Origin: a virus
Taxonomy: Duplodnaviria > Caudoviricetes
Length of the DNA stretch: 64,000 bases
Virus record (IMG/VR): IMGVR_UViG_3300028128_000337
Span: 1 to 64,000 of that record
Direction: 5' to 3' (one strand)
Shown in pieces: positions 2,339 to 63,404 of the stretch. The stretch's first letter is position 1; each line of letters starts with the position of its first letter. The notes beneath the pieces were generated by a model, which had not been told where the DNA came from, did no database searches, and saw only the letters and a list, made by a program, of their open reading frames with translations. The translations under genes and the position numbers were made by a program.

Positions 2339-3142
2339 TTAGTTATCACCTGTAAATATGCTAGCATCAATAGGTATACTCACACCTTCGGGTAGTGTAT
2401 CACATGTTATCGATGCAGTTTCTATTTCTCTACTAACTTTTATAGCGTCAGCAAGTGTTGAGCTCACATTTATTGGCAGACTCTCGAACAAATTCACCAG
2501 GTGACTCGCTTGAGTTGTCTGATCGACAACAAACATGTCGTCCATCACTCCAACTGATTTTATATATTTAACCATCTCGAATACATATATATCTCCAATC
2601 ACATCATTTAACTTCAACTTGTTGTTAGTTGCTTTTTTTACTGCTTTTGTAAACTGCTTGTTAAATTTAGTATCTGTTTGCAGATCCGGTGTAAGACATT
2701 CAATTTTAATTCCACTGGATTCAATATCAAATGTTGTTTTGACATGTATACCACTTTCTCGTTGTTTGGAGATATGTGATTCCAGGTCTATAGTGTGTTC
2801 GATCTCATCTTCATCAGTTATTTTTAGATTGTTACCTAGTGATTTTTGTCTCAATTGTAGCAATATTAGAGGCCTGTCAACCGCTAAAATTTTTATATTT
2901 TTATTCAAACAATTATCTAATATAATACCATTCATGGTGTTACTGAACGCCATGCTCTCGATATCTACATCTACACCGGATGACAGAATCGATTTTTGTT
3001 GTTTTATGGAAAGTGGATTGAAGCTAACCTCTTTGCCTAATGACGGTATAAATATGTCTTGTACTTGTTGTTGGTTGAGCTTGTTAATCGTGCTCAGCAT
3101 CTCTTTAAAGTTCGTTTGTTTGACTTCAACAGTTTCACTCAT
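2339..3142 (-). CDS. Baseplate hub protein, T4 gp26-like
   Basis: IPSLGKEVSFNPLSIKQQKSIL...IILDNC...DRPLILLQLRQKSLG matches the gp26 pattern; tail block context. Confidence 0.7.
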   Translation of the reverse strand: MSETVEVKQTNFKEMLSTINKLNQQQVQDIFIPSLGKEVSFNPLSIKQQKSILSSGVDVDIESMAFSNTMNGIILDNCLNKNIKILAVDRPLILLQLRQKSLGNNLKITDEDEIEHTIDLESHISKQRESGIHVKTTFDIESSGIKIECLTPDLQTDTKFNKQFTKAVKKATNNKLKLNDVIGDIYVFEMVKYIKSVGVMDDMFVVDQTTQASHLVNLFESLPINVSSTLADAIKVSREIETASITCDTLPEGVSIPIDASIFTGDN

Positions 3143-3178
3143 ATACTATATTTACTACAGGTGGTTAATTTTTCAACA

Positions 3179-4102
3179 CTATTGTGTGAAGTTGTGTTGT
3201 GGTAATGACATTCCACCGGTGGATTGGTTATTCTTTTCAGATTGTTTCTTCTGTTCGTCTAGTTCTTTTCTATACAGATTGATATATGTGTTAGTCACAT
3301 AAGGTGGGTGTTTCGCGACGTCATCTAGATTGAATCTCATCTGCTTCACCATTAGATATCTCACATAATACTGCTCTTCTAGATTACAACCATATATCAA
3401 CTTTAAGAATTCATAAAAACTATTATCATACATTCGAAGATTGAAATCCATCACGTCTCCTTCTGTGGCTAGCTTGAATTGATCTCGGTTAAGTACACAT
3501 ATGCTGTATTTCTCATCTATCTTGTTGACCGCTCGTGTGATATCTGTCAAAATATTACCCGGCATGTTGTCAAGTGCTATTTTCTGTTGTTTGGTACTCA
3601 AGTTTTTGAAATTATATTGTTTACCAAACATGTACAGACATTCCAATACAGACATTATAAGCTCATCAGTATCTGTGGTTATAAATTGCTGTGGAGTTGA
3701 TAGCTTGACACTACATTCTGGGGAAGTTTTTATATTTTGAGTGTATTTTACATCATAATTTGTGACTTTGTCCAGTATATCATACAAGTCAAATACTATT
3801 TTCTGTGGATGTTGTTCTTCATCATCTGATCTCAACATCATCTCCATTTTATCAGAAACACACAATATTCTCATGTTCAACAATACACAGAACATGTCTA
3901 TCTTGGTCATATTGTCTAGTGTGGTAGGATCTAAGCATAACTCCGATATCATCTGTTGGAACAATTCCAACACTCGAGTGTCATCATTGTTTTGTATATG
4001 TTTAGCTATCGTTAGGTAGTGATCTCCAGTGAATTCGTAGAATCGCGCGTACTTTTTTAGTGTGGGTAGGTATACATTGTAACTAAATCTCACACCGGTC
4101 AT
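3179..4102 (-). CDS. Second gp26-like hub protein with C-terminal gp51-like domain
   Basis: N-terminal LPTLKKYARFYEF...IDMFCVLLNMR is gp26-like; C-terminal NLEEQYYVRYLMVKQMRFNLDDVAKHPPYVTNTYINLY resembles gp51. Confidence 0.55.
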   Translation of the reverse strand: MTGVRFSYNVYLPTLKKYARFYEFTGDHYLTIAKHIQNNDDTRVLELFQQMISELCLDPTTLDNMTKIDMFCVLLNMRILCVSDKMEMMLRSDDEEQHPQKIVFDLYDILDKVTNYDVKYTQNIKTSPECSVKLSTPQQFITTDTDELIMSVLECLYMFGKQYNFKNLSTKQQKIALDNMPGNILTDITRAVNKIDEKYSICVLNRDQFKLATEGDVMDFNLRMYDNSFYEFLKLIYGCNLEEQYYVRYLMVKQMRFNLDDVAKHPPYVTNTYINLYRKELDEQKKQSEKNNQSTGGMSLPQHNFTQ

Positions 4103-39979: not shown

Positions 39980-39994
39980 ATATGCTTAAGTATA

Positions 39995-59072: not shown

Positions 59073-59657
59073 ATGATAGTTGATATAAAAAATTATGACG
59101 GCAATTTGATACACAACAGATTTGCATATACATTTTTCAAGAAGAGAACACTACCAATCGGTAACATCATCACATTCAGAGGACCCATGCACGTTGAAGC
59201 AGAGGGAATGATTGATCATGAAGATGTGCTCAAGAACGATTTTATATACAGTGATGATGCTATTAATTTCTGTTGGGAGATACCAGGCATGGACAGCTTC
59301 GGAGCTGTGGCATGGCAGCGACTGTTCAACACCAGCATCGCCAACATCTTACAAAGCATGATTCAAGCACCAATCGAGGTGGACGGAGATGATTTGATTG
59401 TGCACAAAGAGTTCACACGTGGTGGCATCGTGCAACACAAAGGCAAATGCAGCGTGAGCATCACGTACACCAAAGATGGTGCCGCGATCGGTCACACCGG
59501 AATCAACGTGACAGCAGGAGACAAAGCACCACCATTCGCATACAGCACCAACTTGACAGATGAGCAAATCAAATCATTTCAAGACACAATTGTGGAGATG
59601 TTTTATGCCATGAATGATGACATGTTCCTGGCCACCACCAAGATCATCACCAAGTGA
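59073..59657 (+). CDS. DUF366-family protein (lipoate/biotin ligase-like fold)
   Basis: YDG..I..FRGPM.V..MID.ED..IYSDDAINF..E..QRL..DGDDL..K.SVSI..HTGINV. Confidence 0.8.
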   Translation: MIVDIKNYDGNLIHNRFAYTFFKKRTLPIGNIITFRGPMHVEAEGMIDHEDVLKNDFIYSDDAINFCWEIPGMDSFGAVAWQRLFNTSIANILQSMIQAPIEVDGDDLIVHKEFTRGGIVQHKGKCSVSITYTKDGAAIGHTGINVTAGDKAPPFAYSTNLTDEQIKSFQDTIVEMFYAMNDDMFLATTKIITK

Positions 59658-60049
59658 CAATATTCGATTGTCTGAACGACATCTTGTTCACCAAGCGTGG
59701 CAAGCTGTTACAGAATGTTGATGACGAGACCACGTTCAATCAATACATGATCAACAGATGGTGCAGCATGTACAGCCCGGGCATGGCACAACTTGTCAAC
59801 AACACTGTCAACTGGCTATACGGTGCATTTGAGACCAAACAACAATACTATAAATTTGTATCCAGTGTGTTCCCTCGAGTGTCACGTAAACGAATACATT
59901 ACATCAAGAAAATTAAACCAGAAGACACAGACAACGAGCTTGAAAATGTACATTTGATCGCTAAACGACTTGAACTCTCGCAACGAGAGATTAAATCTTA
60001 TTATGAGTACAGCAGCAAACACGGCACAAGTTCAACATGCTCAGGCTAA
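59654..60049 (+). CDS. Clamp loader small subunit (gp62-like)
   Basis: IFDCLNDI..K..FNQYMINRW.SM..QQYY.F..PR..YIKK..LIAK..ELS.RE. Confidence 0.7.
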   Translation: MTIFDCLNDILFTKRGKLLQNVDDETTFNQYMINRWCSMYSPGMAQLVNNTVNWLYGAFETKQQYYKFVSSVFPRVSRKRIHYIKKIKPEDTDNELENVHLIAKRLELSQREIKSYYEYSSKHGTSSTCSG

Positions 60050-61176: not shown

Positions 61177-61758
61177 ATGGCTATAATAAAACCGGTATAT
61201 ACTAACATTCCGCAGATAGGTGCTGTGGAGTACACTCTAGGAGGCAAAGTTCCAGTAGATGCAGACACGGTCACAGACGTCGGAGCGCGCTTCACTAACA
61301 AAAAATCAAACACCACCATAACGGTGAAGAGTTTGTACACGTTAGAAGAAGGTGACACCATCAGAATGAAGTCCTCAAGTGGTACAAGTTATGTATTGAC
61401 CGCCTCCGCCGATGGTACCACCAGTGAGGATACCACGGCCCCGAAATATGAAATTGGCGCCACCAAGGCAACCACCGCCTCGAACATGAAAGATGCAATT
61501 GCAGCATTGACAAACTTCACTGCCACAGTCAGTGACACTGTGGTGTATGTAACTCAATCAACTGCCGGTGAGGCTGGTAACACTCGAGTTTACAACTCCA
61601 ACAAGGCTTGTATCAGTACTGCAAGCTTCAAGGGTGGGGGATACGCGTATGATGAACATGACGAAGCCACTGAGGCGTTAACGAAGGGTTATGCCAAGAC
61701 TACTGCAGATGCCAAGATGTTAGAACACGCGCGCAAACGCAATCTTGGATTGATCTAA
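61177..61758 (+). CDS. Late virion structural/decoration protein
   Basis: TAAATA 5 nt upstream; Thr/Ala-rich domain TASNMKDAIAA..FTATV..VTQSTAG.AGN. Confidence 0.55.
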   Translation: MAIIKPVYTNIPQIGAVEYTLGGKVPVDADTVTDVGARFTNKKSNTTITVKSLYTLEEGDTIRMKSSSGTSYVLTASADGTTSEDTTAPKYEIGATKATTASNMKDAIAALTNFTATVSDTVVYVTQSTAGEAGNTRVYNSNKACISTASFKGGGYAYDEHDEATEALTKGYAKTTADAKMLEHARKRNLGLI

Positions 61759-61769
61759 CTTCGGATAAA

Positions 61770-62250
61770 TTCAGACACAAAAAACCCTCAAACTAGTGTC
61801 TCTCGATATAGGTATAGTGCTACCTACCGGCTAGAATTGATAATAAAGAACAATTGGATCATGTCGGTAATTTTCTCCGGATGATGTGGTACGCACACAA
61901 TGCACCTATGAAACAACATAGATGCATTGAGTATGGTAATTATATCCGTATTGATATGTTTACGCAAAAGACGCACTCTTCGAGATATTAATTTTATGGA
62001 GAATCCTGACCTAGTAAACTCCGGTTACGAATAACCACTAATATATGCCGACATTTGTCGCAGTTCGGTGCAATGCAGATCTTACTCTGCCGTTTTTCAC
62101 CTGTCGTCTAACAGTTGTGTTTAATTTAGCTTTGTCCATTCTAGCAGTTCTCTCTGCCAAGTCGCAAACCATCATTGAGCCAACTACTACTCACGCTCGT
62201 GTACCGAAAACGCTGATGGGTATGCTGTAGCGTTGTTTCGCACTTGTGCA
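61770..62250 (-). ncRNA. Candidate large structured non-coding RNA
   Basis: No credible ORF in an otherwise gapless genome; many stems; UUCG loop; TTGATT-16 nt-TATCAT promoter pointing into it. Confidence 0.5.
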
Positions 62251-62300
62251 CTATATATATGATAGCGTATAAAAACTAGAAATCAAGCATAAATATAAAT

Positions 62301-63404
62301 ATGAGGAGCAATCCATTTTATTTCGAGATAAAAGACGTGATGACACAGTTTGTTGCTGCGTTCAACAACATAATAATAAGCCGTCATGATAAATCTAAAA
62401 ATGTAAGGTCTAAAGTACATGTTAGATATGTATATGCCCCTAAACAACGTGTGGTACATGACTTGACAAACAAAGCTCGACACTTAACCTTACCGGTGGT
62501 GGCTGTCAATATCACTGGAATCAATCGAGATTCTAGCCGTGTGTTCAACAAACTAGAAGGTGCATATTACACCGGTGAGGAACGACATAGGAGCTCACCC
62601 AAGTCTGACAAATCTAACAAAGCTGTACATATGCTACAACCAGTACCGATCAACATACAAGTCAGTATGAGCATGATGGCACGGTATCAAACAGATATAG
62701 AGCAGATTGTGAGCAATTTTGTACCGTATTGTGACCCTTATATTGTAATTTCATGGATGATGCCGGAAGGTTTCACATATTACGATCAAGAGATTCGAAC
62801 AGAAGTAGAATGGTCTGGTGATATTAGCATGGATTATCCTGATACACTGACTGGTACAGATCCATATCGACTTAGTGCAGACACTACATTCACTATAAAA
62901 ACATGGCTGTTCAAACAAGTGGAGACACCACAAGAGAATATATACAAAATTACAACCAACATATCACCGGTCGTCGACCTCCCGGACATGTCACTAGTCT
63001 TACCGATGTATGATAATGTGACAGAGAGGTCATATGTTGAGGGTTTAGGACCACCGCTAACAGCAGCCCCGTATATCACACATGTTGAAGATGATGGTCA
63101 GACTACCAACAAAGTGGTGCTTGGTTACAATCTGGGTGAAACAAGCAGTGTGTATCTGTCTTGTAACAACATCAACGCATTGAGCGGTGAGCGTGTGCAG
63201 TTGTTTGACAAAACCGGTTTGAACACATTATATCCAGCTTTCACTGGTGTTAGTGTTGATTATGACATCACTAGTGACAACACTATAGTAATTGATGATA
63301 CAATTGTACCACCTGGTGTGATGTATGATATTGTGGTGGTGAGCGCTGGTGGTTATGATACAGCGGTAAACTCACCTCGACACAACCAAGATGTTATATC
63401 GTAA
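62301..63404 (+). CDS. Tail sheath stabiliser / tail terminator (gp15-like) with C-terminal extension
   Basis: FYFEIK..FVAAFNNI.I.R..YAPKQR..LTLP..D..R..PVPINI..QIVSNFVPYCDP..FTIKTWLF. Confidence 0.85.
   Translation: MRSNPFYFEIKDVMTQFVAAFNNIIISRHDKSKNVRSKVHVRYVYAPKQRVVHDLTNKARHLTLPVVAVNITGINRDSSRVFNKLEGAYYTGEERHRSSPKSDKSNKAVHMLQPVPINIQVSMSMMARYQTDIEQIVSNFVPYCDPYIVISWMMPEGFTYYDQEIRTEVEWSGDISMDYPDTLTGTDPYRLSADTTFTIKTWLFKQVETPQENIYKITTNISPVVDLPDMSLVLPMYDNVTERSYVEGLGPPLTAAPYITHVEDDGQTTNKVVLGYNLGETSSVYLSCNNINALSGERVQLFDKTGLNTLYPAFTGVSVDYDITSDNTIVIDDTIVPPGVMYDIVVVSAGGYDTAVNSPRHNQDVIS

Follow-up and report, generated by a model that had tools for sequence, protein, structure and literature searches.

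What occupies the only large gap in the phage DNA analysed here? The window (64,000 nucleotides, positions 1–64,000 of IMG/VR record IMGVR_UViG_3300028128_000337) has no credible ORF between 61759 and 62300, a region flanked by a 193-aa ORF and the gene for the tail protein gp15, and its other apparent gaps are filled by ORFs of 67–99 aa. The original prediction placed in this gap an ornate multi-stem RNA of about 500 nt, transcribed from its own promoter on the minus strand. Covariation in 34–36 homologues argues strongly for such an RNA, although the conserved element is shorter than proposed, at ~390 nt (61866–62254) plus the promoter, and its fold depends on pseudoknots that the prediction missed. 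From these comparisons we conclude, with a probability of about 0.88, that 61866–62254 on the minus strand (~389 nt, the 3′ end being placed where conservation stops) is the gene for a non-coding RNA of a new family carried by a clade of uncultured marine T4-like phages.

The gene at 62301–63404 (+) encodes a T4-type tail sheath stabiliser, gp15 (PF16724, E 4e-21; phrog_227). Its nearest cultured relatives, from cyanophages and pelagiphages, are only ~28–31% identical, which implies that the phage is an uncultured marine T4-like one; the virus record to which the window belongs is 98 kb long, with a CheckV completeness of 46%. Both genes flanking the RNA block are on the plus strand. On the 5′ side of the gap, the same strand carries genes for a DUF366 protein and a gp62-like clamp-loader subunit, three small genes, and the 193-aa ORF, and the locus forms a junction between this early/replication block (DUF366, gp62-like and the three small genes) and a late block consisting of gp15 followed by a fibre-like protein or a portal. 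DUF366 (PF04017, E 2.6e-24) and then the clamp-loader subunit (phrog_225, E 1.6e-8) lie at 59073–60049 of the window, and the five-gene DUF366/clamp-loader block is found 5′ of the RNA in most relatives.

The surroundings of the RNA vary on both sides. The slot between a conserved 117-aa gene and the RNA 3′ end (61177–61758 in the window) is a gene-swapping hot spot, containing the 193-aa ORF in the window, an 85-aa ORF in L002, nothing in L001 and L004, and fibre-like or Ig-domain proteins in other relatives (the loci compared include L105, L212, and L209). Extra genes lie between the RNA promoter and gp15 in L196/L200 (1805–2998), in L217, L220, L210, and L228, and in L223/L227; these are a 397-aa ORF, or an ORF of 125–140 aa, or a pair of 161–170 and 358–375 aa, none of which has a Pfam match. 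Pfam searches with the genes adjoining the RNA in relatives were uninformative except for the portal and an Ig-like domain. A T4-type portal gene (PF07230, E 5.5e-98; L213, 7498–9123) directly follows gp15 in a cluster shared by ~12 loci; in the window's subgroup a fibre-like protein, not the portal, occupies this position. In L003, whose gp15 is 48% identical, a 545-aa gene (2352–3989), helicase-like by eye, stands in the place of the RNA, and a 112-aa homologue of the small gene neighbouring the RNA is retained, making L003 a relative with the 117-aa-type neighbour gene yet without the RNA. The 117-aa neighbour was considered as an RNA binder and dropped, since it had no match in Pfam or PHROGs and only low-confidence β-barrel look-alikes in the protein atlas.

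Loci were gathered via gp15 and via conserved DNA patterns and then screened with nhmmer profiles; each of the 36 or more distinct copies obtained stems from IMG/VR or a marine metagenome contig. A 16-mer scan of metagenome contigs gave 119 matching stretches, of which 4 new loci (3 distinct sequences) were real, one was the L002 contig again, and the rest were chance matches. Two further candidates were rejected as chance: a Bacilli MAG match from a genome-contig scan (L238), for which nhmmer found no match, and L240/L241, in a 142-kb virus record reached by a loop-motif scan, where only the 26-nt motif matches. All copies have the block on the 5′ side of gp15 with its reading direction away from that gene, and 1–2 genes intervene in some relatives. 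Its edges are sharp: the left flank is unalignable, with different genes abutting it, and the right edge is the −35 hexamer. Nucleotide identity to the window is higher for the RNA (64–89%) than for the conserved 5′ part of gp15 (61–71%; 12 relatives), and identity of the RNA declines from 89% to 64% as gp15 amino-acid identity declines from ~70% to 52%; both observations suggest vertical descent under purifying selection. The block is absent from a sister group (gp15 39–42% identical), in which a ~155-aa gene lies 4 nt upstream of gp15, and, within the available sequence, from L003, L171, and L185.

A consensus scan of the minus strand identified a −35 hexamer TTGATT at 62286–62281 (columns 9–14 of alignment A4, nearly invariant) and, after a 16-nt spacer, a −10 hexamer TATCAT at 62264–62259, as had been predicted, with a putative start near 62254 (±3). 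The pattern TTGAYT-N15–17-TAnnAT is kept in 31 of the 33 copies that reach this far, and 30 of these 33 have TTGATT or TTGACT as the −35 element; the conservation of both hexamers around a spacer of variable sequence is what would be expected of a working sigma-70-type promoter. The first helix of the RNA begins at 62250, just after the predicted start. A late-promoter-like TAAATA, retained in relatives, is found in the interval from the −35 hexamer to the start codon of gp15; the two promoters thus appear to stand back to back, in agreement with the original prediction. In the window the late-promoter-like sequence (ATAAATA/TATAAAT, 62288–62303) abuts the gp15 start codon, and a transcript from there would be nearly leaderless.

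Covariation was assessed on an alignment of 34 copies (A4), made with MAFFT alone and without regard to any structure, in which 17 helices (83 pairs) were fixed by their coordinates. Pairing is possible in 96.5% of 2796 cells (86.0 ± 0.3% in shuffles), double compensatory changes occur in 58 of the 83 pairs (31.8 ± 2.8 in shuffles, with 0 of 500 attaining 58), and the covariation score is 0.422 versus 0.216, these shuffle statistics being inflated by the relatedness of the sequences. When one partner of each pair is slid by 1–3 columns, pairing falls to 33–38%; together with the presence of several independent lineages, these slid controls argue that the covariation is not an artefact of relatedness. 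RNAalifold applied to 21 copies predicted 73 pairs, among which 46 show compensatory changes, and a mutual-information ranking of all column pairs in a 36-row alignment gave top pairs that are almost all 100% Watson-Crick. Within the A4 helices G·U cells far outnumber A·C cells (309 versus 35), which identifies the minus strand as the RNA strand, as a plus-strand structure would be full of mismatches.

By contrast with the comparative evidence, minimum free energy does not distinguish the sequence significantly from dinucleotide shuffles (z = −0.28 for the minus strand, −1.37 for the plus strand, and −1.28 for the trimmed RNA), a result that the original prediction had counted against an RNA. 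Since the fold depends on pseudoknots, the folding z-score was not treated as decisive; in our judgement, the comparative evidence outweighs the non-significant folding energy. The small conserved ORF raised in the prediction as an alternative is not found in the family: ORFs of at least 25 aa, in varying frames, cover any given column in at most 69–77% of copies, the longest ORF per copy ranges from 0 to 76 aa, indels do not come in threes, and the short ORFs of the locus have no Pfam match.

The proposed fold comprises ~13 helices in three groups (P1–P3, P4–P6, and P7–P10), connected by long invariant single-stranded runs and locked by at least four covarying long-range pseudoknots (PKa–PKd); all coordinates that follow refer to the minus strand unless noted. 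The 5′ hairpin P1 (62223–62250) has an outer (62250–62248/62225–62223) and an inner (62244–62241/62232–62229) stem below a conserved 8-nt loop, with double changes in 5 of 7 pairs. It is followed by a three-way junction (62169–62219), in which P2 (62219–62215/62173–62169) encloses P2a (62213–62205/62199–62193) and P2b (62192–62189/62180–62177), and in which 13 of 16 pairs show double changes. The P2b loop (62185–62181) pairs with 62164–62160, just before P3, to form PKc (62160–62185; 94% paired, double changes in 4 of 5 pairs). P3 (62142–62159), a hairpin with an invariant 6-nt loop, is paired in 100% of copies, and its closing pair covaries (CG in 27, UA in 7). The GAC at 62136–62134, within the conserved strand after P3, pairs with 61917–61915 in the P10 loop, more than 200 nt away (PKd).

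In the central group, the loop of hairpin P4 (62101–62114) forms PKb with the 5–8 bases that follow P8 (62109–62105 with 61973–61969 in the window), giving 4–8 contiguous pairs in every copy through 12 sequence combinations. Hairpin P5 (62075–62090) is preceded by the invariant AAAAACGG and is 100% paired, with double changes in 3 of 4 pairs. On the plus strand, 62075–62100 reads as the complement of P5 followed by CGTTTTT, a terminator-like site whose T-run is the complement of the invariant AAAAACGG; early transcription of the plus strand might to some extent end there, ahead of the late genes, but the stem has only 4 bp. The next segment (62006–62063) contains hairpin P6 (62060–62057/62052–62049) and PKa, in which 62063–62061 pair with 62008–62006 in the P7b loop; PKa is 99% paired, and inspection by eye finds the combinations CUG/CAG, CCG/CGG, CUA/UAG, CCA/UGG, and CCU/AGG.

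The 3′ group begins with a second three-way junction (61985–62044), formed by P7 (62044–62037/61992–61985), P7a (62036–62033/62026–62023), and P7b (62022–62019/62001–61998), the last with a conserved 17-nt loop; its helices are 99–100% paired, with double changes in 12 of 16 pairs. P8 is a small hairpin (61976–61984) with double changes in all 3 of its pairs. The segment 61935–61957 contains hairpin P9 (61957–61953/61946–61942), which presents a GGA, and the repeat DR1 (61949–61935); P9 is the weakest helix, scoring 4.93 with its own sequence against 4.28 for mismatched sequence pairs. P10 (61898–61929) is a hairpin of 12–13 bp whose loop takes part in PKd and whose 5′ arm (61927–61924) can alternatively pair with 62048–62045. 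The conserved block ends on its 3′ side with DR2 (61866–61880), a direct repeat of DR1. Covariation would look the same for loop-loop contacts inside a single molecule and for contacts between molecules.

Six of the 11 pairings listed in the original prediction recur in this model with covariation: the hairpin at 61898–61929 is P10, whose G·U pairs are valid on the minus strand only, those at 62023–62036, 62075–62090, 62101–62114, and 62144–62157 are P7a, P5, P4, and P3, and the long-range pair 62169/62214 is P2. The other five were not upheld. The stems at 61809–61826 and 61773–61801 fall outside the conserved block, in sequence left of 61866 that is unalignable between relatives, and the bases of the long-range pairs 61861/62048, 61801/61980, and 62209/62229 pair elsewhere.

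DR1 and DR2 flank P10 at a spacing of 62–75 nt and change in step, by identity rather than complementarity. Their invariant GGA is preceded by U/U in 23 copies, by C/C in 9, by A/A in 2, and by a mixed U/C in 1, and at repeat positions +8 to +11 the two sites agree within a molecule in 69–86% of copies, compared with 30–52% between molecules. By inspection, the joint changes arose independently several times (L209 versus L134; L227, L223, and L167). No complementary partner of either repeat was found inside the RNA or in the 98-kb record, and that record contains no third copy of the repeat. Direct pairing of DR1 with DR2 was rejected on inspection, since the central position would always be a like-with-like mismatch. 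In many copies DR2 could be almost as good a pairing partner for the P9 5′ arm as DR1 is (observed score 3.89 versus 3.54 ± 0.12 when permuted, p ~0.0025). A DR2 hairpin is weakly supported. Columns 266, 409, and 437 covary three-way, linking the P10 5′ arm with its own 3′ arm or with 62048–62045. These patterns are consistent with a switch in the 3′ domain, in which the P9 5′ arm may choose between the two repeats, and the P10 5′ arm between its own 3′ arm and 62048–62045. The twin GGA repeats, for their part, may be recognition sites of a single partner that co-evolves with the phage. A two-state 3′ domain with twin sites for one co-evolving partner is thus a possible reading of the alignment.

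Conservation of the block might in principle have a source other than a minus-strand RNA gene. If the block were mobile DNA that had spread recently, or a gene for a small protein whose conservation mimics that of an RNA, the sharp edges and changing left neighbours would be accounted for, and ORFs of 45–61 aa do overlap the block in the window and its close relatives; this explanation seems scarcely credible, however, for a block that is present once in the 98-kb record, diverges in step with gp15 as expected for vertical descent, carries compensatory substitutions in 58 pairs, and has neither a family-wide ORF nor indels in threes. We regard it as very improbable, too, that the conserved element works on the plus strand, as a leader that controls gp15 or, for the genes upstream, as a terminator or 3′ UTR. 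The plus-strand orientation of the neighbours on both sides, the terminator-like site at 62075–62090, and a folding z-score (−1.37) slightly below that of the minus strand could be cited in its favour, but on that strand the 309 G·U cells would become A·C mismatches, against 35 the other way, and the P5 stem is only 4 bp. Moreover, the block stays constant while the upstream gene changes between relatives, 1–2 genes separate it from gp15 in several of them, and the late-promoter-like TAAATA intervenes between block and gp15.

Two explanations accept the minus-strand transcript and assign it a different purpose. The transcript could prime a replication origin, as suggested in the original prediction; it would then be a structured pre-primer that forms an R-loop, with the direct repeats serving as iterons for an initiator; ColE1 RNA II and T4 oriF/oriG are primer-RNA/R-loop origins. 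An early-type promoter opposed to the flanking genes, the proximity of replication genes including the gp62-like clamp loader, and two direct repeats, placed around a hairpin, that covary by identity like binding sites of one protein, are all compatible with an origin. We nevertheless judge it distinctly improbable, because selection acts on RNA pairing, including G·U pairs possible on one strand only and four pseudoknots, and the primer RNAs known so far make do with much less structure. The repeats, only two in number, both lie within the transcribed RNA; the locus (GC 37–44%) shows no AT-rich unwinding element and no skew switch, and the gene-orientation switch of the window lies elsewhere, near 39980. 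Alternatively, the RNA could be a decoy or sponge for a host GGA-binding regulator of the CsrA/RsmA type or for another dimeric RNA-binding protein. Three invariant GGA triplets are displayed (DR1, DR2, and the P7b loop), DR1 lies in or beside a hairpin loop, the two repeat sites are 62–75 nt apart, and certain copies carry AUACAGGAAAUG, which resembles what we take to be the CsrA SELEX consensus. Yet three GGA in 390 nt are no more than expected by chance, two of the three are used in other pairings, and the fold is pseudoknotted, whereas a CsrB-type sponge typically strings many simple hairpins together. CsrA is conserved, which leaves the co-change of repeat positions −1 and +8 to +11 unexplained, and the 98-kb record (46% complete) contains no csrA gene, nor a gene for RT or TROVE/Ro60. 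A sponge is, in our view, improbable.

The minus-strand RNA gene remains our preferred reading, and its own early-type promoter, the lack of a minus-strand gene downstream, and the globular, pseudoknotted design together suggest a trans-acting folded particle. Such an RNA would be synthesised early in infection by the host RNA polymerase and may act in trans as a compact particle, either a ribozyme or an RNA that serves some specific factor as scaffold or decoy; an antisense or cis-regulatory role is improbable. The left neighbour differs between relatives, leaving no fixed antisense target, and no ORFs or exons flank the block on the minus strand. No intrinsic terminator was found after the conserved block. 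More speculatively, the RNA could belong to a class of large functional RNAs not seen before, working as a ribozyme or assembling by itself into a particle, RNA-only or RNP; DR1 and DR2 would then be programmable sites for recognising a nucleic acid specific to the phage or the host. We consider this unlikely on balance, while giving it a real chance; if true, marine T4-like phages would possess an RNA-guided device that toggles between two folds of its 3′ domain.

The search for a known relative of the RNA gave no match. The Rfam comparison proposed in the original prediction returned no families, with 0 matches for the whole window at gathering scores and 0 in 61500–62500 with permissive filters at E ≤ 10. 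Rfam 15 presumably includes ROOL, GOLLD, OLE, HEARO, raiA, IMES-1 to 4, pRNA, 6S, and RNase P, as well as group I/II introns, tmRNA, manA, wcaG, and TwoAYGGAY. ARAGORN detected neither a tRNA nor a tmRNA in the 64 kb, blastn against GenBank phages gave no match, and a full-text literature search retrieved no description of the RNA. A catalogue of candidate structured RNAs from IMG/VR lists motifs of 30–151 nt only, among which fragments of the RNA could be present (PMC10690425).

The family adds a well-supported RNA class from abundant, uncultured marine T4-like phages. Its covariation is strong enough for model building, transcript synthesis, and direct probing or imaging, and the co-changing twin repeats and alternative pairings provide handles on function. 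It also offers a caution for screening, as a folding-energy z-score alone would have thrown the RNA away. Non-coding RNAs of several hundred nucleotides that are rich in pseudoknots are rare, and most have proved to be ribozymes, ribonucleoprotein cores or, lately, RNA-only cages; we know of no RNA of this kind described in marine T4-like phages.

Comparison with characterised RNAs places the family apart from each of them. The pRNA of the phi29 family is also phage-encoded and structured, with an early promoter and covarying loop contacts, and the RNA described here is likewise located near head-tail connector genes, the portal (PF07230) following gp15 in part of the clade. However, it is more than twice the size of pRNA and has no Rfam match, nothing in the data ties it to packaging, and T4-type packaging motors are not known to require an RNA. 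Group I introns, RNase P RNA, and tmRNA are similar in size (350–400 nt), in their compact multi-pseudoknot folds, and in their conserved single-stranded joins, but differ in that the new RNA has no Rfam or ARAGORN match, no pairing between its 5′ and 3′ ends, and no hallmark motifs that we recognised. A group I intron in particular was rejected, there being no flanking exons or minus-strand host gene as well as no Rfam match. For the identity covariation of DR1 and DR2 there is precedent in the P4 CI RNA with seqA/seqC, the P1/P7 c4 RNA, and lambdoid nutL/nutR, in each of which two similar sites co-change and one phage-specific partner reads both. In contrast to those systems, the DR sites lie inside a large folded RNA, with no complementary partner in that RNA or the 98-kb record.

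ROOL, GOLLD, OLE, and HEARO share with the present RNA a large size, many helices and pseudoknots, and discovery by comparative genomics, and ROOL and GOLLD are, like it, often phage-associated. ROOL, OLE, and GOLLD are roughly 580–800 nt long. The new RNA differs from the four in its smaller size (~390 nt), lack of an Rfam match, restriction to marine T4-like phages, twin co-varying direct repeats, and position away from tRNA genes, of which there are none in the 64 kb; the ROOL/GOLLD-type likeness drawn in the original prediction holds as a size analogy only. GOLLD, ROOL, and OLE are described as forming homo-oligomeric RNA-only complexes (PMC12286853). On the comparative evidence, we rate the RNA as a new class, well supported by covariation, whose nearest analogues in style would be ROOL, GOLLD, OLE, and HEARO.
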